DNA from: a virus
IMG/VR virus record: IMGVR_UViG_3300045051_000148
Reading direction: 5' to 3' (one strand)
DNA length: 53,811 nucleotides
Part shown: piece after piece, positions 17,163-40,073 of the stretch
Layout: each line of letters begins with the position of its first letter
Position numbering within the stretch: the first letter of the stretch is position 1
Made by a program: the position numbers and the translations under genes
The notes under the pieces: model-generated
Database searches by the model: none
The model's input: only the letters and a program-made list of their open reading frames with translations
What the model was told of the DNA's origin: nothing

Positions 17163-19334
17163 TCAGCCCGCGTTCATTGCGTGGAGCTCGTCCACGATGG
17201 ACCCGATTCTAGCCGGGTCAAAGTCGTCTGTGTGGAAATTCGCACCGGACACCAGGCCGCCGGATGCGAAGCCTTCCGCGTTCTTGCGAACGATGTCCTT
17301 GTACTCGTCCTCGGTGACGAACCGCTGGCCGCCGCGCATCTCGGCTGGCACGCCCATCTGCTGGAGATCAACAAGGCCCGTGTTTTTCAGGTCGCCGACG
17401 TTGCTCCAGTTTTGGCTGCGCACAAAGTCATGAACCATTGGAAGCAAATGCGCATCTGGATTATCTTTGTAACCGGTACCGGCATGTCGAATTTTTTGTC
17501 CAGGGTCTTTTTTTCCGGAACCTTTGATTTGAACGATCTCATGAGGAAGACTGCGAACCCACTCCGCATATTCAGGTGTTGCCTCAATGTCTGAAATAAG
17601 CAAATCTTGAGATGCAATTTTGCTTGACTTTGGATAAAGCTTTTGAGCCTCTTTTTCAAGATCAAGATTTTTTGATGCCAAATACTGATACACGGAACCT
17701 TCACCAGGTCGCACCTCGATCGTCACGTGCGGCTGGCCCTTCTTGTCGCGCAGGCTGAAAATCTTGGATCTGCCTTCGATCACATCCGGGCAGTAGCCGC
17801 CGACGCAGTGGCCCATGGTCTCGCCCTCGTACTTGAGCGCGTCCTCCAGGGCTTTGTAGGACTCGTCCATTTCGACCTTCTTCTTCCGATTAAAGTCGGT
17901 CATCAGGTTGCGCACAAAGTCGTTGAACTCCGGAGTGCCTTCGTCAAATCCCTCGTCAAATGCCATGTCCTCAGCCACTTCGCGCATCTGACGCTGGTCC
18001 ATGTCCGGAGGTAAATCCATCTCGGATTTCTCGACGGTGATCTTGCGTCCAGTTTCCTTGGGTGCTTTGAGCTCGACCCATTTGAAGCCCTGCTCGGGGT
18101 ACTCCTTGAAAACCTGCGTGGCCGGGCCCATGGCGCGGGCCATGTCAGCCTCGACCTTTTGGGCCGCGCGCCAGGCGTTGATGTCCGCCACGCGCTGAAC
18201 GGCCTGGGGCACCGTGACCTTCTCCAGGTCCTGGTACTTCCAGCGCAGGTTCTCGGGCAGGCCGGACGTTGGATTGATGGCGTTTTTCAGCTCGTCGACC
18301 AGGTGGCCAAAGCCAAGCATGCCCTGCCCTGCGGAGCCTTGCAGCATCTCGTACACCGGTGTCTCTGGAGGAACCTTGAGCAGCCAGGGGTTTTCCTTCA
18401 CGGTCTCCGGGTAGTAGCCGGTGATGTCCGATGCTTTGAGCGGGTTGATGAATGTGTCCGCCCGATCCTCCCAGGTCTTGGCCAGCGGCGACACGCCCAT
18501 GCCTTCCTCGGGAAATCCTGCCTCGCGGCGCGCGCGGGTGACGTTGTAGCCAGTGGGCAAAATCTCGGAGTGAATCGGGCCCTTCTCGGCCAGGGCTCGA
18601 ATGGGGTCCTCGGCGGTCCCCATCTCGTTTTTGATGTACTTGGCCAGCTTTGTGTCGAGCCAGCGGTTCATGGCCGCCTCAGACTCAAGTCGAGAGCGCT
18701 CGCGAGCAAAAAGCTCTGGATTTACTTCAACGCCAGCTTCAACATTTTGCGCATAAGCCGCATCAAGGTCGCGCAGTCGAGCGGCTGGGTCTTGTCCAAT
18801 GACTTTCACCCGCATCGGGGCAATCTCGCGCTCGATGCTGCCGGCCAGCCAGTTGCCGCCCTTGGGCTTGACCACCTGCGATCGGGATCCTGTGACCATG
18901 TCCTGCATCAGCTGCGCGCCGATGCCGCCACGCTCCATCACCTGTGGCACAACGCGCTCGGCCAGGCGTTCGCCAGCGCGGCCAGCAGCCATGGCGCCAC
19001 GTGTGGCGGTTTTGCCGGCCATCGCAGCGAGAGGCGTGACGTTCATCGCAACATCAGCAACGTCTGCAACCCGAGGATCAAGCCTGAAAGTGCCGATGCC
19101 ACCGGTGGCCACGTTGCCACCACGAATCAGGGCGCGCGGCCCGTAGTAAGAAACGTCCTCAGCAAGGGAGGCGGCGCCGGGTAGCGAAAGCAGCTCGTCA
19201 ACGCTGGTGCCGCCAAGCAGCGGAATGCGTGGATCGACCTGGTACTGGCCAGCAAGTTGTTGCAGTGAGCGCAAACCTCGCGCCAGTGCGCCCGTGTATG
19301 GGTTTTGAGGCGTTGCCCGGATGTTGTCAGCCAC
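17163..19334 (-). CDS. Large portal-adjacent protein with PcfJ-like domain (candidate packaged/ejected protein)
   Basis: 723 aa, GTG start with AAGGAG SD 7 nt upstream. The segment KYEGETMGHCVGGYCPDVIEGRSKIFSLRDKKGQPHVTIEV...IVQIKGSGKKDP resembles the PcfJ-like family (PF14284). Contains a low-GC in-frame patch at ~17430-17700. Confidence 0.75.
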   Translation of the reverse strand: MADNIRATPQNPYTGALARGLRSLQQLAGQYQVDPRIPLLGGTSVDELLSLPGAASLAEDVSYYGPRALIRGGNVATGGIGTFRLDPRVADVADVAMNVTPLAAMAGKTATRGAMAAGRAGERLAERVVPQVMERGGIGAQLMQDMVTGSRSQVVKPKGGNWLAGSIEREIAPMRVKVIGQDPAARLRDLDAAYAQNVEAGVEVNPELFARERSRLESEAAMNRWLDTKLAKYIKNEMGTAEDPIRALAEKGPIHSEILPTGYNVTRARREAGFPEEGMGVSPLAKTWEDRADTFINPLKASDITGYYPETVKENPWLLKVPPETPVYEMLQGSAGQGMLGFGHLVDELKNAINPTSGLPENLRWKYQDLEKVTVPQAVQRVADINAWRAAQKVEADMARAMGPATQVFKEYPEQGFKWVELKAPKETGRKITVEKSEMDLPPDMDQRQMREVAEDMAFDEGFDEGTPEFNDFVRNLMTDFNRKKKVEMDESYKALEDALKYEGETMGHCVGGYCPDVIEGRSKIFSLRDKKGQPHVTIEVRPGEGSVYQYLASKNLDLEKEAQKLYPKSSKIASQDLLISDIEATPEYAEWVRSLPHEIVQIKGSGKKDPGQKIRHAGTGYKDNPDAHLLPMVHDFVRSQNWSNVGDLKNTGLVDLQQMGVPAEMRGGQRFVTEDEYKDIVRKNAEGFASGGLVSGANFHTDDFDPARIGSIVDELHAMNAG

Positions 19335-20418: not shown

Positions 20419-20588
20419 TTCGACCTCCGCGCGGCGCGCATGTTGTCGACCAGGTTGGGGTAAGGTCGTCCGGCCTTCTCGGCTGCGCGCTTGGCGCTGG
20501 ACTTGGCGCTGGGGGAGAGAGCCTTGGGAGCGCCCAGGGAGGTGGGGCGCTTCTTGTCCCAGATGGGCTTGGGTGGCTTAGACGGCAT
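20415..20588 (-). CDS. Small basic protein
   Basis: The track ORF starts at TTG 20633, deep inside terL. I prefer ATG 20588 (57 aa, MPSKPPKPIWDKKRP...AGRPYPNLVDNMRAARRSK). ATGA overlap with the next gene. Confidence 0.5.
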   Translation of the reverse strand: MPSKPPKPIWDKKRPTSLGAPKALSPSAKSSAKRAAEKAGRPYPNLVDNMRAARRSK

Positions 20589-22158
20589 ACGGGTTGACCT
20601 TTCCTTCACGACGATGGGGCCGATCTTCGTCAACGTCGCGTGCCTGTGGCAGCTCGAACCAGCCGTCGTTCTTCAGGTAGATGACCGCCTGCGTGAAGGT
20701 GTCCACGTAGTCGTCATGTTCCGCGACGGGGAACTTCGCCACTTGGGTCAGGAACGGCTGGGCCCAGCTCACAGGCTGGCCGGGGTTCTTGGCAGACTCC
20801 GGGATCCACAGCAGTCCAAGCTCCAACGTCGGCGCGGTCTGGTGCGCCCTCGACACCTTGTCCGCTTGGCCCGGATTGTAGCCAACGGCCGGCACCTTGG
20901 CCAGACGCAGGTCCTGCAGCAGCGATTGGCCACTGGCCTTGGCCTCGACCAGGATGCGGTCGGGCTTCCTTCCCTTGGTCGGCATCCCAGCCTTGGCCGA
21001 CTTGTCCGCCCCGTACTCGCTGGTCCAGTCGCGGATCACCTTGGAGCGCAGGTCGGGGTAGCCCAGGTGCTCGTCCCAGGCGTCGAGCAGCATGGCGTTG
21101 CGCAGGCCTCGGTGCGTGAACACGCCCCAGACCGTGCAGGCCGTCGGGTCGCCCGTGGTCCGCTCGGTGAAGGCGCAGTCGTAGCTTTGCAGGATGTACT
21201 CAAAGGGCGGCAGGCGCTGGGCCACCGGCCAGAGGTTGAAGCAGTCGGCCTTCAGGATGCCGCCCTCGGCGGGCGACGGCTCTTGCTGCAGCTGGCCAGC
21301 GGTGCCGTAGGTGCCCAGCAGCTGCTTGAGCTTGGTGATCTCGGCCTCGCCGAAGCGGTCGGGGCAGATCAGCTCGCCCTTGGTGCGGCGCGGGTCGTAG
21401 GGCCCGAGCACCGTCCTGCGCTGTTTGCCGTCCCACTCGGCCGGGATGCAGATGTGCTCCCAGCCTTTGATGTCGTTGAGGATGTGCCCGCTGATGTCCT
21501 TCTCGTGCAGGCGCTGCATGACCGTCACCATGGCGTCGGTCTTGGGGTTGTTCAGACGCGTGGACCAAACCATGTCGAACCACTCGAGCGCGCTCTCGCG
21601 CATGGTCTCGGACTGCGCGTCCTGTGCGCCGTGCGGGTCGTCCAGGATCAGGCGCGAGCCGCCCTCACCGGTTGCGGTACCGCCCACCGAGGTGGCCAGC
21701 CGGTAGCCGGTCTTGTTGTTCTCGAATCGCTGCTTGGCGTTTTGGTCCCCGGCCAGCTGGAACATGTGCCCCCAGCGCTCCTGGTACCAGGGCGACTGGA
21801 TCAGCCGCCGGGCCTTGAGGTTGTCTCGGATGGACAGCGTGCCGGAGTAGGACGCGGCGAGGAACTTCTGCTCGGGCGAGGTCAGCCACTCCCAGCAGCA
21901 CCAAGCCACCGAAACGATGGTGGACTTGGAGTGGCGCGGCGGGATGTTGATGAGCAGGCGCTGAATCTCGCCGAAGCTGACGGCCTCCAGGTGCTCGCAG
22001 ATCAGCTCGATGTGCCAGCTGGGCACAAACGGGACGCCGGGCTCCATGACGTGCCAAGCCTGTTTGACGAACTCGTACAGGCTGGCGCTGGCGCGGCGGC
22101 GGTCCTGTTCCTTGGCGATCAGGTCCAGCATGACGGCGGGGGAGACGGGTGCGTTCAT
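20578..22158 (-). CDS. terL: Terminase large subunit
   Basis: 526 aa. Walker A-like INIPPRHSKST, Walker B LILDDPH, ATPase coupling and nuclease-half character typical of Terminase_6-type TerL. Confidence 0.93.
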   Translation of the reverse strand: MNAPVSPAVMLDLIAKEQDRRRASASLYEFVKQAWHVMEPGVPFVPSWHIELICEHLEAVSFGEIQRLLINIPPRHSKSTIVSVAWCCWEWLTSPEQKFLAASYSGTLSIRDNLKARRLIQSPWYQERWGHMFQLAGDQNAKQRFENNKTGYRLATSVGGTATGEGGSRLILDDPHGAQDAQSETMRESALEWFDMVWSTRLNNPKTDAMVTVMQRLHEKDISGHILNDIKGWEHICIPAEWDGKQRRTVLGPYDPRRTKGELICPDRFGEAEITKLKQLLGTYGTAGQLQQEPSPAEGGILKADCFNLWPVAQRLPPFEYILQSYDCAFTERTTGDPTACTVWGVFTHRGLRNAMLLDAWDEHLGYPDLRSKVIRDWTSEYGADKSAKAGMPTKGRKPDRILVEAKASGQSLLQDLRLAKVPAVGYNPGQADKVSRAHQTAPTLELGLLWIPESAKNPGQPVSWAQPFLTQVAKFPVAEHDDYVDTFTQAVIYLKNDGWFELPQARDVDEDRPHRREGKVNPYAV

Positions 22159-22624: not shown

Positions 22625-22929
22625 TGCGGGGTCTCGGTTGGTTGTGTGGTGGGGATGCCCATGGCCAGAACATCGGCGTACTCTTTGGCGCTCATGCCTG
22701 CGCCGTCGTCGTTGCGCATCCATTCGATGATGCGCTGGCGCTCAGCCACACCAGCGTCCAGTGCGGACTGCTCGATGGCGGCTTGGATGCGGGGTGCAAT
22801 TTGCGCCATCGCTGCCTGCACCTGTTGCTTGCCGTAAGCCTCGAGCAAGACCTGGGCAGCCGCATCGCCTTCGCAGGCGCGGATCTTCATAGTGGTGAAG
22901 AACGGGTCCATAGGTTCGGTGGTGCTCAT
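22621..22929 (-). CDS. Hypothetical protein
   Basis: The track start is TTG 22932. ATG 22929 overlaps the terS stop by 1 nt (TGATG). 102 aa. Confidence 0.6.
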   Translation of the reverse strand: MSTTEPMDPFFTTMKIRACEGDAAAQVLLEAYGKQQVQAAMAQIAPRIQAAIEQSALDAGVAERQRIIEWMRNDDGAGMSAKEYADVLAMGIPTTQPTETPQ

Positions 22930-23393
22930 CAATCGCTCCCGTTGGCTTTTTGCAACAGCGCCTGCATCTGCGCCAGCTCGGTGTCGTTGAGGCCCTTGAG
23001 GTCAACGCTGGAGACCGCAATCGCGCCGCCGTCCTTGCCGGTGTGCTCGTGCTTTTGGGTCTCGGACCACTTCATCTGGGTTTTGGTCCACCAGATCATG
23101 GCCGTCGTGTCGCCGCTCGTCGCCTTCTGGAACAAGGTGCGCCCGACCTGGCTGTTCGCCTTGGCCTTGCCGCTGAGCAGCTCCTCGGCAAAGTGCGTCG
23201 TCAGGGTCTCAGCGCTGATGCCATTGCGCACCAGGATGGCGATTTGCTCAAGCGGCAGGCCGTAGCCCGACATGGCTTCCACCTGCTTTCGCTCGGTTTC
23301 CGTGGGTTCAAATGCAGGTCGGCCAGCCCCAGGACGAGCCCCGCCGTTTTTGCCTGGTTTTTTTAAAACCGATTTTTCAGTCGCTTTTGTCAT
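22929..23393 (-). CDS. terS: Terminase small subunit (HTH type)
   Basis: 154 aa. N-terminal basic GARPGAGRP, HTH-like SGYGLPLEQIAILVRNGISAETLTTHF, then TTAMIWWTKTQMKWSE typical of many small terminases. CTGAAAGGAGC SD. Confidence 0.7.
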   Translation of the reverse strand: MTKATEKSVLKKPGKNGGARPGAGRPAFEPTETERKQVEAMSGYGLPLEQIAILVRNGISAETLTTHFAEELLSGKAKANSQVGRTLFQKATSGDTTAMIWWTKTQMKWSETQKHEHTGKDGGAIAVSSVDLKGLNDTELAQMQALLQKANGSD

Positions 23394-23435: not shown

Positions 23436-24794
23436 TCAATCCGGCTTTTTGGCCGGTTTGGTCTTGTCGGCCTTGGGTTTGTCGGCCTTCCCGATCTCGC
23501 TCCCGATCAGGCTGTTGGGGCTGCGTTCGCCCATCACCTCGGTGAAGGATCGCCCGTCGGCCTCCAGGTGCGCGTGCTTGCCGGTGAACTGCTGCCAGCG
23601 GGTGACGATCACGTCGCAGTATTTTGGGTCCAACTCCATGAGCCTGGCAACTCGGCCGTTTTTCTCGGCTGCGATAAGGGTGGTGCCAGAGCCTCCGAAG
23701 CTGTCCAGGACGATGTCGCCGCCCTTGGTGTTGTTGAGCATCTGGTACTCGAAAAGGGCCACGGGTTTCATGGTCGGGTGCTCGCCGTTGCGGGCGGGCT
23801 TGTCGAACTCGAGGATGGTGGTCTGCTTGCGGTCGGCAGCCCAGAGGTGGCCCGCGCCGTCTTTCCAGCCGTAGAGACATGGCTCGTGCTGCCACTGGTA
23901 GTCTTGGCGGCCGAGGACAAGGCTGGACTTCTTCCAGATCAGGCACTGGCGCACGGTCCAACCGGCGTCCTTGGCGGCTCCCCGGAAGTTGTAGCCCTCG
24001 CTGTCGGCGTGCCAGATGTAGAAAACCGCCCCGGCTTTCATGACCGCGTTGGCTGCGGTGTAGGCATCGCGCAGGAACTCGCGGAACTGGGTGTCGCCCA
24101 TCGAGTCGTTTTTGATGGTGAGCTTCTCTTTGGTACCGCCCTCATAGGCCACGTTGTAGGGCGGGTCGGTCAGCCACATGTCCACAGGTTGTCCGGCGCA
24201 GAGCTTTTCCAGGTCGTCGATGCTGGTGGAGTCTCCGCAGAGCAGTCGGTGACTGCCCATGACCCACACGTCGCCTTGGACGGTGACCGGGTTGGCCGGG
24301 GCCTCGGGCGCGTCGTCGGGGTCTGTGAGGCCTTCCTCCAGCTCCAGGGGCATCAGGGCGTCGATCTCTTCTTCGGTGAAGCCTGTGAGGCCAACGTCGA
24401 AGCCGAGGTCCATCAAGTCTTTGAACTCGGTGGCCAGCATGGCGTTGTCCCATCCGGCGTTGAGGGCGAGTCGGTTGTCGGCAATGATGTAGGCGCGTTT
24501 CTTGGCCTCGGACCAGCCGGTGGCGACCATGACCGGGACCGTTTTGATTTTGAGGCGCTGTGCGGCCATTGTGCGGCCGTGTCCGGCAATGATGCCGCCT
24601 TGCTCATCGACCAGGATGGGCGTGGTCCAACCCCACTCTTTGATCGAGGCTGCGATCTGTCCGATCTGCTCGTCTGAGTGGGTGCGGCTGTTGCGTGCGT
24701 AAGGGATAAGTTTGTCGATGCTCCACTGCTCGATTTTGTCGGCAGGGTTTCCGGTGAGTTTTTCGGCGGTGATTTCCGTGGTGGGTTTTGTCAT
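23436..24794 (-). CDS. ParB-like nuclease domain fused to N6/N4 DNA methyltransferase
   Basis: Trimmed to ATG 24794 (452 aa). ParB-N-like IPYARNSRTHSDEQIGQIAASIKEWGWTTPILVD...IIAGHGR, then the methylase motif IV WLTDPPYNV and a C-terminal AdoMet motif VLDSFGGSGTT. Confidence 0.9.
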   Translation of the reverse strand: MTKPTTEITAEKLTGNPADKIEQWSIDKLIPYARNSRTHSDEQIGQIAASIKEWGWTTPILVDEQGGIIAGHGRTMAAQRLKIKTVPVMVATGWSEAKKRAYIIADNRLALNAGWDNAMLATEFKDLMDLGFDVGLTGFTEEEIDALMPLELEEGLTDPDDAPEAPANPVTVQGDVWVMGSHRLLCGDSTSIDDLEKLCAGQPVDMWLTDPPYNVAYEGGTKEKLTIKNDSMGDTQFREFLRDAYTAANAVMKAGAVFYIWHADSEGYNFRGAAKDAGWTVRQCLIWKKSSLVLGRQDYQWQHEPCLYGWKDGAGHLWAADRKQTTILEFDKPARNGEHPTMKPVALFEYQMLNNTKGGDIVLDSFGGSGTTLIAAEKNGRVARLMELDPKYCDVIVTRWQQFTGKHAHLEADGRSFTEVMGERSPNSLIGSEIGKADKPKADKTKPAKKPD

Positions 24795-24819
24795 GAGGTG
24801 CCTTCGGTGGTGGTGGGGA

Positions 24820-25041
24820 TTATGCAACGCGCCAGCAGCGGGCACCGCCTTCGACTGTGTTGCAGGTGAATTTTTTGCCTGTTTTGTTGGCGTGCCACTG
24901 AGCGGAGTTGCTCAAGGCTCTTGCGCTCATCTTGGGGGCAAAAAACGAATCGCCGATCTCCATTTTTGCAAACGGGTACTTGGGTCGAGCGCCGCCACCG
25001 GTGTGCTCAGGGGCGGGGATATTTTTCTCTATTTCGAACAT
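24820..25041 (-). CDS. Small conserved phage protein, first gene of late/packaging block
   Basis: 73 aa, AAGGA SD. ...ARPKYPFAKMEIGDSFFAP... resembles small proteins often found next to ParB-methylases. Confidence 0.65.
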   Translation of the reverse strand: MFEIEKNIPAPEHTGGGARPKYPFAKMEIGDSFFAPKMSARALSNSAQWHANKTGKKFTCNTVEGGARCWRVA

Positions 25042-25131
25042 GGGCCATCCTTGGTTTGAACTTGGGCCTTTATTGTTGATCGAGTTGCAAAAAAATCAAA
25101 TTCAATACCCGACCCGTGTGATCGGGAATTT

Positions 25132-25482
25132 TTGGCACAACCTGGCACCGGTGGAACCGGATAAAAGCAGACATTTTCACTGTGTTCTTTCTTGCGTGTG
25201 TGTGTGCGTGTGTGCATGTGAATATAGGCGTTTTATCTTGTGCATGGTTGTGCCAAAGTCAAAAACACCAATAAAATCAAAGGGTTGCACGGTTTTTTGT
25301 CGGTCGAAAAAAGTTGTGCCAGCTTGCACCGGCACACCTTTAAGTTGTGCCAAAAGCCGGATTTCAGAATGGCTCAGCATCGCTTTCCCAATCGTGACGC
25401 AAGCGAATGCCGGTGTAGAGGTTCAATCGTGTGCCAGAACCCTCCGTGGCACAGGCTTCCTGACCCCTCGATGTTGTGCCAG
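25132..25482. repeat. Cluster of YTGGCACAAC motif copies (iteron/operator candidates)
   Basis: TTGGCACAAC at 25132-25141 (+). Reverse copies at 25247-25256, 25313-25322 (CTGG...), 25344-25353 and 25473-25482 (CTGG...), plus a degenerate copy CTGGCACACG at 25428-25437. Four copies lie in the AT-rich gap and two in the 3' end of the primase-helicase gene. Confidence 0.7.
25194..25220. repeat. 27-nt perfectly alternating purine-pyrimidine tract (imperfect GT repeat)
   Basis: gcgtgtgtgtgtgcgtgtgtgcatgtg alternates R/Y at every position. It sits in the intergenic region between the motif copies. Confidence 0.9.
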
Positions 25483-28003
25483 AACCGCGTGGTTGGCTGC
25501 GTTTGACGCCCGGGAAAGCGGCCGAAAGTTGGCGGCCAAACGACACCTTGGTGCCTGCGTGATCGCGGCCCTGGGCCTCGCACCACTTCTTCCAAGCCTT
25601 GAAAAGCTCGTCGCGATCGGCTTGGGCGTGCTCGCTGACCACGCACATCTCGTCCACAAAAGCGCGGATCGGGCTGGTCTGATCGACCAGGTCTGAAGCC
25701 AGCTCGTCGGCCGAGGTGGGGCGCTGGAAGTAGCCGCGCTGGTTCAGACGGGCCAGGCCCTCAAGTGCCCACAGGACGATGCCGGGCAGCTCCTTGAGCA
25801 GGCGGGCCGTGAGGCCGTGGTCCTCCTTGCCCAGGAAGCTCGTGTTGAACTTGAAGGGCAGGAACCGGTTGGCCAGGGCGGCCGAGGCGTCCGAGAAGGC
25901 GGGCAGCTCGTTGGAGGCCAGCACGAAGCGGATGGCCATCTTGCCGGACCAGGCGGTCATGTTCTTGCGGTCGATCGTGATGGTGTCCTCGCCCGAGATC
26001 CGCAGCAAGTTTTCCACGATGGGCTGCTGGTCTGCGCGGCCGGAGAGGCGGGCGTCGGAGATCATGGCCAGGCGCTTGCCGATCAGGGGCTGCAGGCCGA
26101 ACTGCGTGCCAAGCGACGCGAGGCTGGGGCTCACCCGGTTGGCGTACCCGACCAGGGCTTCGAGGATGCGCAAGATGGTGCCCTTGCCGCAGCGTGGGGG
26201 GCCGATCAGCATGAACATCTTTTGCTGGCTGGTGTCGTCGGTCAGCAGGTAGCCGAACATCTCGGCCAGGGTGCTGATGGACTCGGGGTCGTCGGGCCAG
26301 AGGCTGTGCAGGAACTTCAGCCACTCGGTCGGCGCGCTGGCGCTGGGGTCGTAGTCGAAGTCCAGGGAGGACACGCAAAACAGCCGGTCCGTCGACGGCA
26401 TGATGGTGCGGGTCGGGTGGTGCAAGAAGCCGTTTTTGAAGGCCACGATCTCGTGGGCCAAGTGGTCGCCAGGCTTGGGTTCAATCCAGACTTGGGGCTC
26501 GGGCAGGTCGGCGTAGCACACCGCGCGCAGGGCGTGGGCGACGTCGTTGACCGTTGAGGTTTTCGGGTTGAAGGCCACCGTCTCGCTGTCGCCTGTCTTA
26601 GGGTTGACTTTGAGCGTCAGGCACCCGGCCATGAAGTGGTACAGGCGCTGGTCGATGTAGACCCGGTCCCGAGTGACGTAGCGCGTGGCGTCCCAGCTGT
26701 AGAACTCGCCGCGCCAGTGGATGATGCGCCCGCGCTCGGGCAGCGTCTCGTGGAACAGCTCGGCCGTTTTCATGGGCGAGCTCGAGAAGATCATCGGCTG
26801 ATCATGGCTGTCCGGCGGAATGTTGTCAGGGGCCCGGGGTGGCTCAGGGGGCGGGGGCGTGTGCCCAGCGTGGTCCGAAACGTCGGGGATGGGTGCGTCG
26901 TCGAAGTCGGGCGGCAGGTCGTCCCAGGGCGGCTCAAAATCGGATGGAAACGGGTCCGAATCGGGTGGAATCGGTTGTTTTTCTGGCGGTGGCTCATCCG
27001 GTGAGCCTGCCTTCATGATGCAGTCCTCGACGGCGGCCAGGCCGTCGGCCAGGTGCAGGTCGTTGAAGTCGGTACCGGTGCCCCGCGTTGAGACGTTCCA
27101 GACCGGGATGGCCAGCAGCGCGTTGACGGCTTGGGCGGTCTTGCGGGCGTAGGTCAGGCCAGGGTTGCCCTCGGTTTGAGCGTCGTCGTCGGCCGCGATG
27201 ATCAGGCGGGCCTCGGGTAGCGCGGCGCGAATCTTGCGGGCAACCGGCTCCAGGTTCCCGGCGTTGAAGGCAACAACCACGCAGTGCCCGGTGGCCATGC
27301 GGATGGAGCAGCAAGTGGCCCAGCCCTCGGCGATCACCACGGTGCCTTGCTTGTCGGGCTTGCCTAGCACTGTGTAAGCGCCGCCCGATGGCGTGCCTTT
27401 GAGAAACAGCTTTGTGCCGTCAGACTTGATGCGTTGGAGGCCAACCAGTGCGCCGGGGCCGTGGCGCAGCGGGATGAGCAGCTCGTCGCCCAGCATGCGG
27501 GCACCCTCGGGCTCGATCTGCTTGCGCTGAGGGTAGGGGTGGCTGGTGACCGTGGTGGCCCGAGCCCACATCTCGGCGGCGCGGGTGGCAGCGGCGTCGC
27601 GCTCTATTTTGGCCTGGGCCTCCTCGGCTGCCATGCGGGCCTCGCGCTCGGCGATGCGGCGGGCACGTTCCTCTGGGTCGACCGGCTTGCGGTCCTGGGC
27701 TGTTGATTTGTAGCCGCCCTCTTTGGCCAGGGCGATCAGGGTGCCTATGGTGGCGCGGTTGGAGCCGCCGCCGGGTTTGCAGGATTTCCAAACGTCGCGT
27801 GCGTCGCGGCTGTTGTAGTTTGAGCCCTGCTGGCTCCAGGCGTCCCACGCTTCGAAGGCGGGCTCACCGAATTCTTCTTTGAGGATGAAGGCCATCTTCA
27901 CCCAGGTCTCGCGGTCATCGACGCCGCGAACGAATGAGAGCATGCGCTCCGCTGTCTCGAGGGAAATGGGGTCCCTTGGCCCTGTAGTTTTTGTTCGTTG
28001 CAT
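25364..28003 (-). CDS. Bifunctional primase-helicase (PriCT-like N-domain, Toprim, P4-alpha/D5-type SF3 helicase)
   Basis: 879 aa. N-terminal WVKMAFILKEEFGEPAFEAWDAWS (PriCT-2-like). Toprim VVIAEGWATCCS...IIAADDDAQTEGNPG...GTDFNDL. Pro-rich linker. Walker A LIGPPRCGKGT and downstream D5/P4-type helicase character. Confidence 0.9.
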   Translation of the reverse strand: MQRTKTTGPRDPISLETAERMLSFVRGVDDRETWVKMAFILKEEFGEPAFEAWDAWSQQGSNYNSRDARDVWKSCKPGGGSNRATIGTLIALAKEGGYKSTAQDRKPVDPEERARRIAEREARMAAEEAQAKIERDAAATRAAEMWARATTVTSHPYPQRKQIEPEGARMLGDELLIPLRHGPGALVGLQRIKSDGTKLFLKGTPSGGAYTVLGKPDKQGTVVIAEGWATCCSIRMATGHCVVVAFNAGNLEPVARKIRAALPEARLIIAADDDAQTEGNPGLTYARKTAQAVNALLAIPVWNVSTRGTGTDFNDLHLADGLAAVEDCIMKAGSPDEPPPEKQPIPPDSDPFPSDFEPPWDDLPPDFDDAPIPDVSDHAGHTPPPPEPPRAPDNIPPDSHDQPMIFSSSPMKTAELFHETLPERGRIIHWRGEFYSWDATRYVTRDRVYIDQRLYHFMAGCLTLKVNPKTGDSETVAFNPKTSTVNDVAHALRAVCYADLPEPQVWIEPKPGDHLAHEIVAFKNGFLHHPTRTIMPSTDRLFCVSSLDFDYDPSASAPTEWLKFLHSLWPDDPESISTLAEMFGYLLTDDTSQQKMFMLIGPPRCGKGTILRILEALVGYANRVSPSLASLGTQFGLQPLIGKRLAMISDARLSGRADQQPIVENLLRISGEDTITIDRKNMTAWSGKMAIRFVLASNELPAFSDASAALANRFLPFKFNTSFLGKEDHGLTARLLKELPGIVLWALEGLARLNQRGYFQRPTSADELASDLVDQTSPIRAFVDEMCVVSEHAQADRDELFKAWKKWCEAQGRDHAGTKVSFGRQLSAAFPGVKRSQPRGSGTTSRGQEACATEGSGTRLNLYTGIRLRHDWESDAEPF

Positions 28004-28184
28004 ACCTGGCGTCTGTTGGCTGGCGAATAAAAGGTGGGGCAGCCCTCGCCAGGGTCAGGCCTTGTCACCGGTGGATCAGACCGGTCAAGCCCCGTGAACA
28101 GTATAAGGGCGTGCGGGCGGAAAAACGCAACACCTGCGAAAATAAATGTGCGGTTTTGCGCAACGGTTGTGGTAGCATCGTTGC

Positions 28185-28243
28185 TGACGCCAGTGCTCAC
28201 GGAGTCCTGCAAGGAACTCGGCGAAACGCGGGTGCTGGCGTCA
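28185..28243. repeat. Nested inverted repeat in non-coding gap
   Basis: TGACGCCAG (28185-28193) pairs with CTGGCGTCA (28235-28243). Inside it GGAGTCC..GGAACTC forms a second imperfect hairpin. Confidence 0.6.
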
Positions 28244-28258
28244 CATCACGCATGCGGC

Positions 28259-28290
28259 TTGGCATAAATGGCACACCCTGCTGGCATAAA
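28259..28290. repeat. Three YTGGCAYA motif copies upstream of primase-helicase gene
   Basis: TTGGCATAAA (28259-28268), ATGGCACACC (28268-28277) and CTGGCATAAA (28281-28290). They are related to the YTGGCACAAC cluster at the other end of the gene. Confidence 0.5.
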
Positions 28291-28368
28291 CCGACAAAAC
28301 CGGGGTTCTGGCCAAGTCGGGCTAACAGGCTGCAGCCGTGATGGTGTAGTTCAAGTTTTGGAGAACAG

Positions 28369-28387
28369 CCCGTCAGTGGATGACGGG
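28369..28387 (-). terminator. Stem-loop after VRR-NUC gene
   Basis: CCCGTCA-5 nt-TGACGGG perfect 7-bp stem, 29 nt after the stop at 28416, followed on the minus strand by CTGTTCTCC. The U-tract is weak. Confidence 0.4.
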
Positions 28388-28415
28388 GAAATGCCGGGAT
28401 CAGCACCGGCCACCA

Positions 28416-28730
28416 TCAACCTCCATTCACCGCCAGCCTGGCATCCTCCACCGACCGAACGATTGCCGCCAGGGCCCCGCGCTTTTTCATCGCGGCGATG
28501 AATGCGAGCTGCTCGGGTCTGGCACGGCCCTTGGCGGTTTTCACCTCCAGATAGAACGCCCGCGCATCGCTGGCCCGGTGTCCAAACAAATCCGAGAAGC
28601 CTTTGGGCAGACCTGTTTTGACAGGCCGACCATCTTTGGTGAAAAACATCCCCACATTGGCCCTGGCCACGAAGTGCCCGTCGGTAGACAGCGCAATCAT
28701 GATCTGATGCATTAAATCAGTCTCGCTCAT
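28416..28730 (-). CDS. VRR-NUC domain nuclease
   Basis: Trimmed to ATG 28730 (ATGA overlap). 104 aa. GLPKGFSDLFG...AFYLEVKTAKGRARPEQLAFIAAMKKRGALAAIVRSVEDA fits the D...E.K nuclease core of VRR-NUC. Confidence 0.85.
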   Translation of the reverse strand: MSETDLMHQIMIALSTDGHFVARANVGMFFTKDGRPVKTGLPKGFSDLFGHRASDARAFYLEVKTAKGRARPEQLAFIAAMKKRGALAAIVRSVEDARLAVNGG

Positions 28731-29002
28731 CGCCTGCCATGCTCCCAAACACGCCGCACCAAGGCCTCGAGCTCCTGGCACGCCTTCTCGCCGCGCACCT
28801 GCAGGATGCCGCGCTTGACGATCTTGCCCGCCTCCTCACGGCCGCGCAGGTACTCGCGCCGGGCGACCTTGTCGGGGATGGACAGGATGTGGCGGGCCTC
28901 GCACTCAGCACGCCAGGCCTCGCAGTAGGTGCACACCGTGGTGCCGTCGATCAACTTCACGACCTGGTCGGTTTCCAGGCGGTTGCAACCAGCGCAGCTC
29001 AT
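28727..29002 (-). CDS. Small zinc-ribbon-like protein
   Basis: Trimmed to ATG 29002 (ATGA overlap). 91 aa, MSCAGCNRLE...VCTYCEAWRAECEAR... Confidence 0.65.
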   Translation of the reverse strand: MSCAGCNRLETDQVVKLIDGTTVCTYCEAWRAECEARHILSIPDKVARREYLRGREEAGKIVKRGILQVRGEKACQELEALVRRVWEHGRR

Positions 29003-30420
29003 CGCTTCTGGGCCTCCTTGGCGGCGCGGGCGCGGAGCACGTGGCGCGCCCAAAGCTCGGGGCGTTTCATGCCCCGGGCGCGGCCGATGCGAATGAGGTC
29101 GGCCTCGGTCTGCGACCTGCCCTGCTCCATCTTGCGCTCCTTGACCGCCTGGGCCTTGGCGGCGGCAGCGGTGATCTCCTCAAGTTGCCCATCCACTTCT
29201 TCGATCTCGCGGCCAACGGGCTCGAAGTGGTGGCCACAAGCGCAGTCGGTGACGATGGAAGGCACAGTGGCAAAGCACACGGGACAGGTTTTCACCGGCA
29301 CCTCGGACTTCTTGGAGTTTTTGCGCTTTTCGACGGCGGCCAGGGTCCACTCGCGCAGGTCGGTGGGCAGCCCATGGCGCTTCACGTTGCCCGCGTGGTC
29401 GAGGATGATGCAGTCGTCCTTGCCAGGGTGTGTGCGCAGGCCACGGCCAACGGATTGCAGGTACTTCACGACCGACTGCGTAGGCGCGAGCTGGATGATG
29501 CAGCCGATGGATGGCGCGTCCACACCGGCCACCCACAGGGCGCAGTTGCAGACCACATCCAGGACGCCGTCGCGCAGGCCTTGCAGGGCAGCGTCGCGCT
29601 CAACGGTGTCGGACTCGCCGCTGATGGCCACGGCCCGGTACCCGGCCTGGCGAAACTGCTCGGCCACGTTGGTCGCGTGCTCCACGGTCACGCAAAACGC
29701 CACGGCCGGGCGACCATCGGCCAGCTTGCGGTAGTGCTGCACGGCGCTGCCGGTAATGACAGGCTTGTCCATGGCGGCGGCCAGCTCGCCCTGGTTGAAG
29801 TCGCCCATGCTGGTGTGCACACCGGACAGGTCCGGCTCGCTGGGCGCGTAGTAGCGGATGGGAGCGAGCAGCCCCTCGTCGATCAGGTCCTGCGTGCTGC
29901 AGGTGGGCACCAGGATGTCAGCGACCTCGTTCATGCCTCGGCCGTCCAGGCGGCAGGGTGTGGCCGTGAGGTGCAGCAGGTGCGCGCCGCCGGGTCGTTT
30001 GAACTTCGGGCCTGCGCCAGCCCACTCGAAAATCTGCTGGTAGGTGTTGGCCACGGCCAGGTGCGCCTCGTCCACGATGATGAGGTCCGGTGGCTGGTAC
30101 CGGTCCAGGCGGCGCACCAGGGTCTGCACCATGGCCACCTGCACGGGCAGGCGGTGGTTGCCGTCGCGGCCCGCTGCGATCCAGCCGTAGGGGATGCCCG
30201 CATCGGTCAGGCGGTTGCTAGTGTCGTTCAGGATTTCCTTGAGGTGCGCGATGAACCACACGCGCTTGCCTTTGTCGAGTGCGTTTTGGATCATGCAGAT
30301 CGCGGTTGCGCTCTTGCCAAAACCGGTCGGGGCAATCATGACCGGAGCCTTAAATCCACGGCGGTAGGCCGCACGCAAATCCTCGATGGCTTTTGCTTGT
30401 CGGGGGCGAGGTGTGATCAT
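28999..30420 (-). CDS. Superfamily-2 DEAD/DEAH-box helicase
   Basis: Trimmed to ATG 30420 (473 aa). Motif I APTGFGKSAT, motif II IIVDEAH, motif III LTATP, helicase-C motifs (VVCNCALWVAGVDAP...QSVGRGLR) and a C-terminal CPVC...CACGHH zinc finger. Confidence 0.9.
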   Translation of the reverse strand: MITPRPRQAKAIEDLRAAYRRGFKAPVMIAPTGFGKSATAICMIQNALDKGKRVWFIAHLKEILNDTSNRLTDAGIPYGWIAAGRDGNHRLPVQVAMVQTLVRRLDRYQPPDLIIVDEAHLAVANTYQQIFEWAGAGPKFKRPGGAHLLHLTATPCRLDGRGMNEVADILVPTCSTQDLIDEGLLAPIRYYAPSEPDLSGVHTSMGDFNQGELAAAMDKPVITGSAVQHYRKLADGRPAVAFCVTVEHATNVAEQFRQAGYRAVAISGESDTVERDAALQGLRDGVLDVVCNCALWVAGVDAPSIGCIIQLAPTQSVVKYLQSVGRGLRTHPGKDDCIILDHAGNVKRHGLPTDLREWTLAAVEKRKNSKKSEVPVKTCPVCFATVPSIVTDCACGHHFEPVGREIEEVDGQLEEITAAAAKAQAVKERKMEQGRSQTEADLIRIGRARGMKRPELWARHVLRARAAKEAQKR

Positions 30421-30662
30421 CGCTTCCCCGGCAACGGCTGCCGCTCCACAAAATAGCGCCCCGTGCTGTTTATGAACTTGGCGTTTAATCCTCGCTCGGC
30501 AAGCAAATGCTCGAAGGTCTCGTTGTGCGGAATGTGCGCCATCCAAACGGCGGCGATCTCGTTGGGCTGGCCGGTCGTTGCGATGCGGTTCAGGAAATCA
30601 AGGACCTCAGCGTAGGCGCGGTTTTCGAGGGCGGGTTTGAGGTCAATCATCGCTTCCCCGGC
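30416..30662. repeat. Two identical 17-nt copies at consecutive gene junctions
   Basis: atcatcgcttccccggc at 30416-30432 and 30646-30662. On the coding (minus) strand this is GCCGGGGAAGCGATGAT, encoding ...PGKR-stop overlapped by the ATG-AT(C) start of the next gene in both cases. Confidence 0.9.
30417..30650 (-). CDS. Hypothetical protein
   Basis: Trimmed to ATG 30650 (ATGA overlap). 77 aa, MIDLKPALENRAY... ends ...LPGKR. Confidence 0.6.
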   Translation of the reverse strand: MIDLKPALENRAYAEVLDFLNRIATTGQPNEIAAVWMAHIPHNETFEHLLAERGLNAKFINSTGRYFVERQPLPGKR

Positions 30663-30964: not shown

Positions 30965-31116
30965 TCGTCGTCCTCCTGGTGATCCTGAATCAGCTGGGCC
31001 TTAACCAGGTCCAAGCAGCCAAGCGCGGTGGGCAGCAGCATGGTCTGTTCGTATTTGTGGACAACGGCGAGCAGCTCATCGACCAGGGCTTGGGTGATTG
31101 CGCCGTGGTAGTTCAT
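30961..31116 (-). CDS. Hypothetical 51-aa acidic miniprotein
   Basis: Hand translation MNYHGAITQALVDELLAVVHKYEQTMLLPTALGCLDLVKAQLIQDHQEDDE. ATGA overlaps with both neighbours. Fills an otherwise empty 150-bp gap. Confidence 0.5.
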   Translation of the reverse strand: MNYHGAITQALVDELLAVVHKYEQTMLLPTALGCLDLVKAQLIQDHQEDDE

Positions 31117-31517
31117 GGGGTTTTCCTATTGAGCTTCTCGTTGAGGCTGACGACCCGGTCGCTCTCGTTTATGGCCCACGCGACCTGCCTGAGTTTTCGG
31201 ATAGCCTTGTTCTCGATCTGCCGAACGCGCTCACGCGTGACGCCAATTTTCAGACCTACTTCTTCAAGAGTCTCGCCGTAAATAACCCTTGCCAAAAACA
31301 CAAGGCACTGCTGATTGTTCAGGTTTGACCGTTCCCAAATCTTGCGCATGTAGTCCTGCATTTCAAACTCCATGTCGTAAGAGTTTGTTGGTTCCCCAAC
31401 CAGCAAGGGGAGTTCATCCAGGTCGTCGTTGCGCGTGAGCCAGATCCGATAAACCTCGGGGTCCAGATTCTTGACCTGCAGCTTTCCGTAGTGGGGGAGT
31501 GCTTTACCGCGCATCAT
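31113..31517 (-). CDS. Sigma-70 family region-4 (4.2 HTH) protein
   Basis: 134 aa from ATG 31517 (ATGA overlap). NNQQCLVFLARVIYGETLEEVGLKIGVTRERVRQIENKAIRKLRQ closely parallels RpoD region 4.2 (...LEEVG..F.VTRERIRQIEAKALRKLR). Low-GC segment (31321-31380 has 27/60 G+C). Confidence 0.75.
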   Translation of the reverse strand: MMRGKALPHYGKLQVKNLDPEVYRIWLTRNDDLDELPLLVGEPTNSYDMEFEMQDYMRKIWERSNLNNQQCLVFLARVIYGETLEEVGLKIGVTRERVRQIENKAIRKLRQVAWAINESDRVVSLNEKLNRKTP

Positions 31518-31828
31518 GGCTGCTCCGGTGTTGGCCACTGCGCCCAGATCAGCGGCTTGCCGACCAAGTGCTCTTTTTCCAAAGTCATCGTGACAAACTC
31601 CAGGGGGGAAACTTGCACCGGGCCTTGCGCCAGCTCTGGGGCATCGGCGTACACCTCCCTTGGGTCAATGCGCTTGTCGCCCTTGCTCCAAGCGCTGCCA
31701 AAGGTGGCCACGTCGCGCAGCATGTCTTGCGCGAGCTGCTCCGGCGTGCTGGGCCCGGTCTGCGCGCCGCAGCGCTGGCAGCTCAGGATGTTTCTGGCGG
31801 TGAAGTGCCAGTCGTGTTTGCAGGTCAT
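31514..31828 (-). CDS. Hypothetical protein with N-terminal CxxC/His cluster
   Basis: 104 aa, MTCKHDWHFTARNILSCQRCG... ATGA overlaps. Confidence 0.6.
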   Translation of the reverse strand: MTCKHDWHFTARNILSCQRCGAQTGPSTPEQLAQDMLRDVATFGSAWSKGDKRIDPREVYADAPELAQGPVQVSPLEFVTMTLEKEHLVGKPLIWAQWPTPEQP

Positions 31829-37872: not shown

Positions 37873-38197
37873 CCGAGAACTACTGGAACTAGCGGCAAAG
37901 GCGGCTGGCGACTTCACCATTCCAAAGTATTACCGCGTTGCGGATGATCTGCCGGTGGTTTTTATGCTGAATGATAAACCTTGGAACCCCCTCAAAGACG
38001 ACGGCGACGCGCTGCGTCTGGCGGTGAAGTTGAGGATGTCTCTTGTGATGTTTTCAATTTATGTCCGGGTGGACACCGTGGATTACGAGGCCATTTACGA
38101 GGAATACGGCGACGACCCCCACACCGCCACCCGCCGCGCCATCGTGCGTGCGGCAGCCGAGATCGGAAAACAAATGGAGAAAAACAATGGCAACTGA
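37865..38197 (+). CDS. DUF2591-like phage protein
   Basis: 110 aa from ATG 37865. MSDRELLELAAKAAG...WNPLKDDGDALRLAVKL...ATRRAIVRAAAEIGK matches my recollection of the DUF2591 (phage ABA-sandwich) family. Confidence 0.6.
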   Translation: MSDRELLELAAKAAGDFTIPKYYRVADDLPVVFMLNDKPWNPLKDDGDALRLAVKLRMSLVMFSIYVRVDTVDYEAIYEEYGDDPHTATRRAIVRAAAEIGKQMEKNNGN

Positions 38198-39143
38198 AAT
38201 CATCGTCCCCAGCAATCAAGAACACTGGCTTGCCATGCGCAAGCAAGACGTCACCAGCACCGAGTCTGCGGCGCTGTTCTCAATGTCTCCATACGTCACG
38301 CATTTTGACCTCTGGCACCGCAAGCGCACAGGCATCGTGCCCGAGTTCAAGACCAACGACCGCATGGCATGGGGCAACCGACTGGAGGCCGCGATCGCGC
38401 ACGGCATCGCCGAGGAGCAGGGTTGGGAAATCCGGCCCATGAAGGAGTACTTCCGCGACCCCGACCTGCGCATGGGCAGCTCGTTTGACTTCGTGATCAC
38501 CAACCTGCCGGGAGGCCCGGTGCACCTGGAGATCAAGAACGTCGACTACCTGGCCTTCCGCGACGGCTGGCTTGAGCACGAGGACGGCAGCATCGAGGCC
38601 CCGGAGCACATCGAGATGCAGGTCCAGCACCAGATGGCCGTCTCAGGCTTTGAGCGAGCGTTCATTGGCGCGTTCATCGGCGGCAACAGAGGCGTGGTGA
38701 TCGAGCGCCTGCGCGATGAGGACGTCATCAAGGCGATCAAAGCCAAGGTGGCGGCCTTCTGGAAAACGGTCGACGAAGGCCAAGAACCAGACCCAGTGAT
38801 GCCAGGCGACGCCGAGGTGATCATCCGGCTCAACCAGTACGCCAAGCCTGGCAAGGTGCTCAGCGCAGACGGCGACGAAACGCTGGCCGAGCTGCTCGAG
38901 CAGTACAAGTCGGCAGCCGCCACCGAGAAAAACGCCAAGGAGGACAAGGACGTTGCCAAGGCCAAAATCTTTAAGCACATCGGCGACGCCGAGAAGGTCC
39001 TGACCAGCGCCTGGAGCGTGAGCTGCGCGATGCAGGCAGACACCCCTCCGACCCTGATCACCGCCGACATGGTGGGCAAGTCCTACGGTGGCCGCGCAGG
39101 GTTCAGAAATCTTCGTTTATTCCCACGCAAGCCCACGAAATGA
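38187..39143 (+). CDS. YqaJ-type viral recombinase exonuclease
   Basis: 318 aa from ATG 38187 (GGAG SD). ...HWLAMRKQDVTSTESAALFSMSPY...SSFDFVI...VHLEIKNV... fits the PD-(D/E)xK YqaJ/lambda-Exo-like fold. Paired with recT. Confidence 0.85.
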   Translation: MATEIIVPSNQEHWLAMRKQDVTSTESAALFSMSPYVTHFDLWHRKRTGIVPEFKTNDRMAWGNRLEAAIAHGIAEEQGWEIRPMKEYFRDPDLRMGSSFDFVITNLPGGPVHLEIKNVDYLAFRDGWLEHEDGSIEAPEHIEMQVQHQMAVSGFERAFIGAFIGGNRGVVIERLRDEDVIKAIKAKVAAFWKTVDEGQEPDPVMPGDAEVIIRLNQYAKPGKVLSADGDETLAELLEQYKSAAATEKNAKEDKDVAKAKIFKHIGDAEKVLTSAWSVSCAMQADTPPTLITADMVGKSYGGRAGFRNLRLFPRKPTK

Positions 39144-39185
39144 TGGTACACTGATTGGAAATTCCAAACAGGAATCCACCCCGCA

Positions 39186-39207
39186 GCCGGTCGGCCACCG
39201 GCGTTTT
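39186..39207 (+). terminator. Small hairpin + T4 between exonuclease and recT (attenuator/stability element candidate)
   Basis: GCCGGT-CGGCC-ACCGGC followed by GTTTT, ending 2 nt before the recT SD. Preceded by the palindrome TTGGAA-A-TTCCAA (39163-39175). Confidence 0.35.
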
Positions 39208-39221
39208 CAGGAGCAACTCAA

Positions 39222-40073
39222 ATGAGCCAAGTCGCTGTTATCAATGAAGTCCGAAGCGCCATCGAGCGCATGTCCCCTCAGTTCAAAGCCGCCCTGCCAG
39301 CCCACGTCAGCGTCGACCGTTTTGTGCGCGTCACGCTGACCGCTGTGCAGACCAACCCCAACTTGCTCGAAGCTGACCGCCGCACGCTGTTTGCCGCAGC
39401 CACCAAGGCCGCGCAAATGGGCCTGCTGCCAGACGGCCGCGAGGGCGCGATCGTCACGTTCAAAAACCAGGCGCAGTGGATGCCGATGGTCGCGGGCATC
39501 ATGAAGCTGGTGCGCAACAGCGGCGAGATCAGCACCTGGTCGGTCCAGGCGGTCTACGAAAACGACACCTTCGATTTCTGCCTGGGCGACGAAGAGCACA
39601 TCACGCACAAGCCCAACCTGGCCAACCGTGGCAAGCTGATTGCGGTTTACTCGATCGTGACCATGAAGGACGGCGAGAAGTCCCGCGAGGTGATGAGCGT
39701 CGAGGATGTGCTGGCAATCAAGGCCCGCAGCCGCTCCGGCAGCTCTGGCCCTTGGGTGTCCGACTTCGCCGAAATGGCCAAGAAGACCGTCATCCGCCGC
39801 CACAGCAAGCGCCTGCCTTTGAGCACCGACATTGACGGCGTGCTCAAAGAGGACGACGAGCTGTTCATGCCCGAGCCCGCACAGGCCGCGCCAGAGGCCG
39901 CACAAGCCGAGGAAAAGCCGTCCGCAGCGCGACGCCCCAGTCGCCTGAATAAAGTCGCTGAGCAGGCGCCAGAGGCCGCGCAGCCCGACTCCGACGGCGT
40001 AATCGACGTGCCGCACACCGACGTCCAGAACGCCACCTACGCGGGCGAAAACGAAGCCGACAGCCCGATCTGA
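39222..40073 (+). CDS. recT: RecT-family single-strand annealing protein
   Basis: 283 aa. ...FKAALPAHVSVDRFVRVTLTAVQTNPNLLEADRRTLFAAATKAAQMGLLPDGREGAIV... has typical RecT N-terminal and core features. Confidence 0.9.
   Translation: MSQVAVINEVRSAIERMSPQFKAALPAHVSVDRFVRVTLTAVQTNPNLLEADRRTLFAAATKAAQMGLLPDGREGAIVTFKNQAQWMPMVAGIMKLVRNSGEISTWSVQAVYENDTFDFCLGDEEHITHKPNLANRGKLIAVYSIVTMKDGEKSREVMSVEDVLAIKARSRSGSSGPWVSDFAEMAKKTVIRRHSKRLPLSTDIDGVLKEDDELFMPEPAQAAPEAAQAEEKPSAARRPSRLNKVAEQAPEAAQPDSDGVIDVPHTDVQNATYAGENEADSPI

Follow-up and report, generated by a model that had tools for sequence, protein, structure and literature searches.

Positions 25132-25482 of the IMG/VR virus record IMGVR_UViG_3300045051_000148 probably constitute a phage replication origin of the type found in Staphylococcus aureus pathogenicity islands and phage-inducible chromosomal islands (SaPI/PICI satellites) and in phage P4, a reading based on sequence comparison to which we assign a probability of roughly 75%. 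The whole stretch analyzed (53,811 bp, hereafter the window) looks like an apparently complete ~54-kb phage genome. The candidate origin is an array of short repeats (iterons) with the core TGGCACA that straddles the 3' end of a minus-strand gene encoding an 879-aa P4-family primase-helicase, and the C-terminal winged helix of this enzyme is the predicted reader of the repeats. The origin interpretation, one of two put forward in the original prediction from the letters of this DNA, is supported by a conserved layout, by distant homologs that carry repeat words of their own, by a modeled winged helix, and by the co-inheritance of array and reader as a cassette.

A dense iteron array at the primase-helicase stop codon

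The YTGGCACAAC cluster initially reported is real. Five exact copies occur in the window, one on the plus strand (25132) and four on the minus strand (25247, 25313, 25344, and 25473), and all of them fall within 25132-25482; the near-match noted elsewhere, GTGGCACAAC, is indeed present at 18944. The signal lies in clustering rather than abundance, because the number of copies with at most one mismatch is ordinary across the window (16 found versus 11.8 expected, no enrichment). Of the 12 window copies of the core TGGCACA, 7 fall in 25040-25500 (binomial P = 2.5e-12). As a look-elsewhere control, every 7-mer was ranked by its densest 460-bp cluster, in the window and in 40 dinucleotide shuffles of it. 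TGGCACA (seven copies in 460 bp) shares the top rank with CTGCTGC, a 7-mer with 46 copies in total, whereas the best 7-mer of each shuffle reaches just 4-6 copies per 460 bp. The anticipated excess over background thus holds for clustering, which goes beyond the 40 shuffles, but not for one-mismatch abundance.

The array comprises ~11 sites over 351 bp (7 perfect and 4 degenerate copies of TGGCACA) and, counted from the primase-helicase stop codon (25364-25366), reaches from -113 to +227. Three sites lie within the 879-aa open reading frame (ORF), which the array enters by ~120 nt; the remainder occupies the 322-bp gap (25042-25363) before the next ORF, and both the gap and the overlap are as first described. 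The earlier list of copies was accurate for the exact ones but incomplete: it missed the perfect core at 25447 (plus strand) and the degenerate copies CGGCACA (25330-25336, plus strand), TGGCACC (25143-25149, plus strand), TGGAACC (25152-25158, plus strand), and TGCACAA (25238-25244, minus strand), while the single copy that it called degenerate corresponds to the TGGCACA at 25430 (minus strand). The elements of the array are as follows, with offsets counted from the stop codon.

25473-25482, minus strand: iteron CTGGCACAAC, forward, coding, offset -113
25447-25453, plus strand: iteron core TGGCACA, inverted, coding, offset -87; forms TGTGCCA-N10-TGGCACA with the next site (I5)
25430-25436, minus strand: iteron core TGGCACA (CTGGCACACG), forward, coding, offset -68; encodes the Gly-Thr of GTRLN and is found in nearly all relatives
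25344-25353, minus strand: iteron TTGGCACAAC, forward, offset +15
25330-25336, plus strand: degenerate iteron CGGCACA, inverted, offset +30; most relatives have an inverted site here
25313-25322, minus strand: iteron CTGGCACAAC, forward, offset +47
25315-25336, minus strand: terminator-like hairpin made of the +30 and +47 iterons, followed by the T-run ACTTTTTT
25238-25256, minus strand: left inner arm, two forward sites ~10 bp apart, TTGGCACAAC (+113) and the degenerate ATGCACAAGAT (+123); arm of inverted repeat I1
25160-25237: low-GC center, 35-50% GC versus 61% for the window; includes the TATATT hexamer at 25221-25226
25193-25220: alternating purine-pyrimidine (TG/CA) tract of 28 nt, candidate unwinding element
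25132-25158, plus strand: right arm, three inverted sites ~10 bp apart, TTGGCACAAC, TGGCACC, and TGGAACC-GGATAAAA

The layout therefore consists of forward copies, a low-GC center, and inverted copies. The inner sites of the two sides form the inverted repeat I1 (18 nt, 89% complementary, 91 nt between the arms), and the tract at 25193-25220 is the sole purine-pyrimidine alternating run of at least 16 nt in the 53.8-kb window. The T-run 3' of the iteron hairpin is not kept in relatives of the TGGCACARGAT type (described below), so a terminator role for 25315-25336 is uncertain. An Rfam scan of 24500-28600 returned nothing but sub-threshold chance matches.

The primase-helicase and its modeled winged helix

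The gene upstream of the array encodes a recognizable multidomain initiator, and its C-terminal domain is the part of interest.

25364-28003, minus strand: primase-helicase gene, 879 aa, with PriCT_2, Toprim_3, D5_N, a DUF5906 P-loop/superfamily 3 (SF3) helicase, and a Pox_D5-type C-terminal domain (Pfam, PHROG)
25394-25672, minus strand: C-terminal winged-helix domain, approximately residues 778-870, from the AlphaFold2 model
25424-25489, minus strand: wing loop PRGSGTTSRGQEACATEGSGTR, residues 839-860, encoded by three iterons

The P4-like character proposed for this helicase is borne out by family models: residues 520-814 match TIGR01613 (‘phage/plasmid primase, P4 family’) with 152.9 bits against a cut-off of 108.7. 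The top PDB match by sequence is the SaPI5 PriRep structure 7OLA (3.9e-9), although identity to PriRep5 is only ~16%. Structurally, an AlphaFold2 model built from a 73-sequence alignment (mean predicted local distance difference test score, pLDDT, of 82) also has 7OLA as its top fold match (E 1.8e-16; template-modeling score normalized to the target 0.62-0.74), ahead of the poxvirus D5/E5 and African swine fever virus primase-helicases, and the matched 7OLA chains include the C-terminal domain. In the model this domain is composed of helix 778-786, strand 787-796, helix 797-810, helix 819-829, strand 834-836, a loop, and strand 862-868; the Pfam Pox_D5 match covers residues 778-831. Residues 819-829 (KVSFGRQLSAAF) are the candidate recognition helix in this model. 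This Pfam domain corresponds, according to PMC2777425, to the winged helix with which P4 alpha and pRN1 ORF904 bind their origins. The enzyme family is very large, with 47,961 representative proteins at E ≤ 0.001.

Conservation of the array and exchange of the array-wing cassette

A survey of IMG/VR provided 45 related loci, several of them on 54-56 kb contigs; L numbers below denote relatives and homologs. In more than 35 relatives, all uncultured phages, GCACA-core sites recur with unchanged orientation and at fixed distances from the stop codon of the helicase gene, in line with the expectation that motif and spacing would be conserved. The forward sites are kept at -113, -68, +15, +37/47/58, +113, and +123, and the inverted sites at -87 and +30, followed by 1-3 copies at +205/215/225, beyond the conserved center. 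Within each genome the repeat word shifts in concert: the window has TGGCACAAC; L004, L010, and L011 have CGCACARGAT; and many genomes, the 97%-identical L001-L003 among them, have TGGCACARGAT. TGGCACA arrays of the same layout are also present in L050-L053, where the helicase's C-terminal part is only 50-60% identical. At the center, the CA-rich tract is kept in high-GC relatives and in L050, and the DNA is plain AT-rich in L043, L047-L049, and L051-L053.

Comparison of close relatives reveals a mosaic pattern centered on the array. Identity between L010 and L005 is 95-98% as far as about -180, falls to 62-72%, and is back at 95-98% from +225 on; L011 and L007 have flanks that are 95-100% identical around a segment of 42-60% identity; and L004 shows the same pattern against L001. 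Across these three pairs the flanks are 95-100% identical while -120 to +230 is only 42-73% identical, and therefore the wing and the array, together with the center, move as one cassette. A divergence of 30-50% in this segment, set between such similar flanks, points to frequent replacement of the candidate origin-plus-wing module by recombination. The three CGCACA-type arrays, which sit on three different helicase backbones, are ~83% alike and closer to each other than to the arrays of their backbone relatives.

Exchange of the word is accompanied by a change at the base of the wing. Arg839 is part of a QPR sequence in all TGG-type genomes, including L050-L053, and is replaced in the three CGCACA genomes (QPM or QPS); it is the sole residue of the C-terminal domain outside the iteron-coded loop that tracks the repeat word. 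This covariation is suggestive, as a correlation within one cassette lineage. In the same three genomes, the change from GGCACA to CGCACA turns Ser-Gly-Thr into Arg-Thr, alongside the loss of Arg839.

The iteron at -68 is constrained as DNA. The Gly-Thr of the GTRLN motif is encoded by GGC ACA without exception (28/28 and 30/30 unique rows), whereas ACA serves for only 10 of the 56 Thr codons of the primase-helicase gene and the third position is free to vary at other conserved Gly/Thr codons nearby. The Arg codon of the motif is mostly AGA and the Leu codon is TTG in 29 of 30 unique rows; together with GGC-ACA these codons make up the family consensus GGCACAAGATTG. In L016, L019, L023, L034, and L037, the wing loop is missing or shorter and a single coding iteron is left, which in L016, L019, L023, and L034 is the one at -68. 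A bolder interpretation builds on the double use of the DNA: the coding iterons, once translated, supply the wing of the domain that would read them, a changed repeat word would rewrite the reader at once, and the wing-plus-array cassette would act as an exchangeable specificity module for replicon identity or incompatibility among co-infecting phages. We consider this unlikely.

Distant homologs and independence from neighboring genes

Four distant helicase homologs (36-53% identity) have the same layout immediately after their stop codons (direct copies, 45-70 bp of AT-rich DNA, inverted copies), each with its own word, and their candidate recognition helices differ.

L043: direct TGGTCC, inverted GGACC
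L047: direct TGCCCTAG, inverted CTAGGGCA
L048 (Bythopirellula chromosome): direct GTGGAAC, inverted GTTCCA
L049 (Bryobacterales chromosome): direct TGTCACGC, inverted GCGTGACA

Genomic neighborhood analysis suggests that the array layout goes with the helicase gene and not with its neighbors. No recognizable packaging gene lies downstream of the L048 and L049 genes, which are followed by an HTH_17 protein, a DnaJ/TerB protein, and unknowns. TGGCACA arrays are kept next to a small-terminase gene (terS) of the Sf6 type in L023, L034, L052, and L053, which has no BLAST similarity to the terS of the window, and arrays are also kept in several genomes without an adjoining ParB-methylase gene. The gene for a stand-alone sigma-70 region-4 protein (31113-31538 in the window) has no homolog in five array-bearing relatives of at least 99% completeness; the 121-aa VRR-NUC protein, used as a control for this search, was found in 5/5 of them.

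Genome context

On the minus strand, an SNF2-type helicase gene (28999-30546), a VRR-NUC nuclease gene (28416-28781), and the primase-helicase gene precede the repeat region, which is followed by a 73-aa DUF7303-like ORF (24820-25041), a ParB-N/DNA methylase gene (23436-24794), terS (22929-23393), and the large-terminase gene terL (20578-22158). The designation ‘first late gene’ for the ORF next to the array was imprecise, as this 73-aa ORF is missing from most relatives and the methylase and terminase genes come after it. Three elements of this context are as follows.

28260-28288, plus strand: trio TGGCATA / TGGCACA / TGGCATA, inverted relative to the primase-helicase gene; possible auxiliary site
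24820-25041, minus strand: DUF7303-like gene, 73 aa, a presence/absence insert between the array and the methylase gene
24819-24828, minus strand: GTTGCATAAT element, overlapping the stop codon of the 73-aa gene and placed 25 nt upstream of the ATG (24794) of the ParB-methylase gene

The upstream trio, with sites starting at 28260, 28269, and 28282, places three sites in 29 bp at a distance of 2.8 kb from the array and is unlikely to be due to chance. It sits in a 65-nt insert of a variable upstream gap that is common only to the window and L035 (4716-4738), and it is not found in ~20 other relatives, nor even in the 97%-identical L002; in L002, L004, and others, different sequence takes its place. 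The view that the gene is bracketed by motif clusters thus applies to these two genomes and not to the family. The trio may be an auxiliary helicase-binding cluster reminiscent of P4 crr, or a remnant, and in either case stands outside the conserved design. Between it and the primase-helicase start, ~150 nt (28004-28160, minus strand) are strongly kept in all relatives; they contain a promoter-like TTGCGT-N18/19-TATACT, then a GC-rich hairpin set (GGGGC...GCCCC), then ACCTTTTATT, and have the look of a helicase-gene promoter joined to a structured leader or attenuator.

On the other side of the array, the 73-aa gene is present in the window, L006, L025, and L026 and missing from L001, L004, L021, and most relatives. 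In the window it is preceded by a hairpin at 25108-25126 (CCCGATCACACGGGTCGGG plus a T-rich tail). Where it is missing, the GTTGCATAAT element comes straight after the right-arm iterons (L001, L004, L013, and others). Most relatives keep the form GTTGCATAAT(T/C)C at a distance of 25-70 nt upstream of where the ParB-methylase gene starts, and the element may be a late-operon promoter or control element.

Elsewhere in the window, the sigma-70 region-4 protein (31113-31538) has a Pfam match of 4.2e-12, and its gene was apparently acquired recently by this genome; it has no match in the nearest record, G001, which is just 64% complete. A plus-strand block at 38061-40073 encodes a RecE-like exonuclease and a RecT-like annealing protein. 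A search of phage GenBank entries matched the methylase gene alone and returned no annotated relative of the array. The probable host of this full 54-kb tailed phage belongs to the Comamonadaceae. One relative, L046 (NZ_JBDNGU010000173.1), is a 6.2-kb contig in a Polaromonas metagenome-assembled genome, with a helicase 82% identical to that of the window and the same array; its binning is a weak hint of a Polaromonas or other Comamonadaceae host.

Proposed initiation mechanism and competing explanations

We infer that the helicase binds the iterons and that melting and initiation take place at the array. The 879-aa P4-family primase-helicase, with its SF3-type self-loading helicase, would recognize the TGGCACA iterons through its C-terminal winged helix. 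With forward copies toward the gene and inverted copies away from it, helicase assemblies would come to lie in opposite orientations around the low-GC center, and the center, with its 28-nt alternating TG/CA tract, would melt. The Toprim primase part could then prime synthesis. The host polymerase probably extends the primers, because no DNA polymerase gene was seen among the annotated ORFs of the window.

This scheme follows the SaPI precedent, in which the ori lies immediately downstream of rep, contains six to twelve iterons, and has an AT-rich center with at least two iterons per side in opposite directions; there, the winged helix of the Rep C-terminal domain reads the iterons and two hexamers probably load flanking the center (PMC9371898). 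Every sequence-level feature of that description is found at the array. The site is directly downstream of the rep ORF, the number of iterons is in the range of 6-12, the modeled C-terminal domain is a winged helix, and at least two iterons on each side of the center oppose each other (25238-25256 forward, 25132-25158 inverted). In addition, the word changes with the DNA-binding domain, as a correlation only, in the four distant homologs, in the exchanged cassettes, and at Arg839.

Several observations count against an origin. Genomes with the words TGGCACAAC, TGGCACARGAT, and CGCACARGAT have one and the same recognition helix, so that within the clade the wing is the sole carrier of covariation with the word, and the wing loop is modeled with low confidence (pLDDT <50 at residues 843-855). 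The center is low in GC (35-50%) rather than strictly AT-rich. GC skew shows no inflection at 25.2 kb, which is listed here although it is uninformative, because the genes on either side are co-oriented. Finally, every phage relative has the array where the replication module gives way to the packaging module. This boundary is the usual place of late promoters and of cos/pac sites, so synteny alone cannot separate the readings.

Competing explanations draw on this position. The repeats could act on the packaging/late operon, turning it on or insulating it as operator or activator sites bound by a phage regulator such as the sigma-region-4 protein; binding of a late activator was the alternative in the original prediction. 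The TATATT hexamer, which comes after the +113 and +123 sites, and the terminator-like hairpin made of two iterons would fit such a role. However, the sigma-region-4 gene is missing from the five array-keeping relatives in which the control protein is found, which removes this protein as the binder, and TATATT (25221-25226) is not kept in L014-L016, L019, and L023. The GTTGCATAAT element travels with the methylase gene; it lies ~300 bp from the array in the window but abuts it in L001-type genomes, so that it is not in register with the repeats. A spread of ~11 sites across 350 bp, in both orientations and with three inside coding DNA, is also unlike a promoter, and the same layout follows helicase homologs that have no packaging genes downstream. 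A sigma-54 promoter (TGGCAC-N5-TTGC(A/T), with TGGCAC as the -24 box) was considered and rejected, since no copy has TTGC at the required spacing and there is no sigma-54 match; the nearest case, TGGCACAACCATGCA at 25247-25256, is one base out of register and not kept in relatives. The ParB-methylase was likewise discarded as a binder of parS-like sites, as arrays persist where its gene is not adjacent. Taken together, late control is quite improbable as the function of the repeats.

Recognition by the packaging machinery appears very improbable. The repeats would then be a pac or cosB-like site bound by the small terminase, in keeping with their position upstream of the packaging module and with the short-repeat arrays that surround the cut site in P1 pac and lambda cosB. 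Yet the same TGGCACA array accompanies two terS families that lack BLAST similarity (the window type and the Sf6 type), and this swap of terS families weakens a pac site. The array is anchored to the helicase stop codon and extends inside the gene, while its distance to terS varies by insertions; cassette exchange swaps array and wing but leaves the downstream DNA 95-100% identical; and complete IMG/VR relatives open at arbitrary places, some inside the helicase gene, and not at the array. An origin could also double as a control element, with the helicase, on the same sites, ending or gating read-through from the replication to the packaging operon. All of the evidence for an origin applies here too, as do the hairpin and T-run (25336-25315) and the location at an operon boundary, but the T-run after the hairpin is not kept in TGGCACARGAT-type relatives, and we rate such a dual role as improbable. 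A replication origin of the SaPI/P4 type thus remains the preferred reading of 25132-25482.

Comparison with known replication systems

This kind of origin is already known, and its principle is unchanged by the present case. Two modest peculiarities set it apart: some of its iterons double as coding sequence for the wing loop, and its candidate unwinding element is an alternating TG/CA tract instead of AT-rich DNA. The array and helicase provide a candidate origin-initiator pair for a large clade of uncultured ~54-kb freshwater-type phages.

The pRN1 ORF904 of Sulfolobus resembles the system in combining a primase, an SF3 helicase, and a winged helix, with an essential cis region downstream of the gene (PMC2777425, PMC4234260). 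It differs in belonging to an archaeal plasmid, in its prim-pol type primase, and in that no comparable iteron array has been described there. In phage P4, the C-terminal domain of alpha reads short iterons, and two separated cis elements, ori and crr, are required. The likeness to P4 alpha lies in the TIGR01613 match and in the domain order of Toprim primase, SF3 helicase, and winged helix (PMC2777425). Unlike P4, the window has a single compact array with a different iteron word, and the second small cluster (28260-28288) is limited to two genomes. The lambda ori lies within gene O, with iterons inside the initiator's own coding sequence. As in lambda, the same DNA would be both a binding site, here a putative one, and initiator coding sequence; in lambda, however, the whole origin is inside O and O is no helicase, whereas here only 3 of ~11 sites fall in coding sequence, namely that of the wing.

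The SaPI/PICI replicons (SaPIbov1 and SaPI1 Rep, SaPI5 PriRep; PMC9371898) share with the window the position of the origin, here a candidate one, immediately 3' of the gene for the helicase, a set of ~6-12 short iterons, a labile center with at least two opposed iterons per side, and a self-loading helicase-primase fusion with a C-terminal winged helix. They are satellites of Gram-positive hosts, whereas the window is a full phage of a probable Comamonadaceae host. In addition, its primase part consists of PriCT_2 plus Toprim, its array overlaps the gene by 120 nt, with the wing loop encoded there, and in its center a tract of alternating TG/CA takes the place of a plain run of AT. These parallels support the view that many full phages, too, use the satellite ‘pri-rep-ori’ module as their standard replicon.

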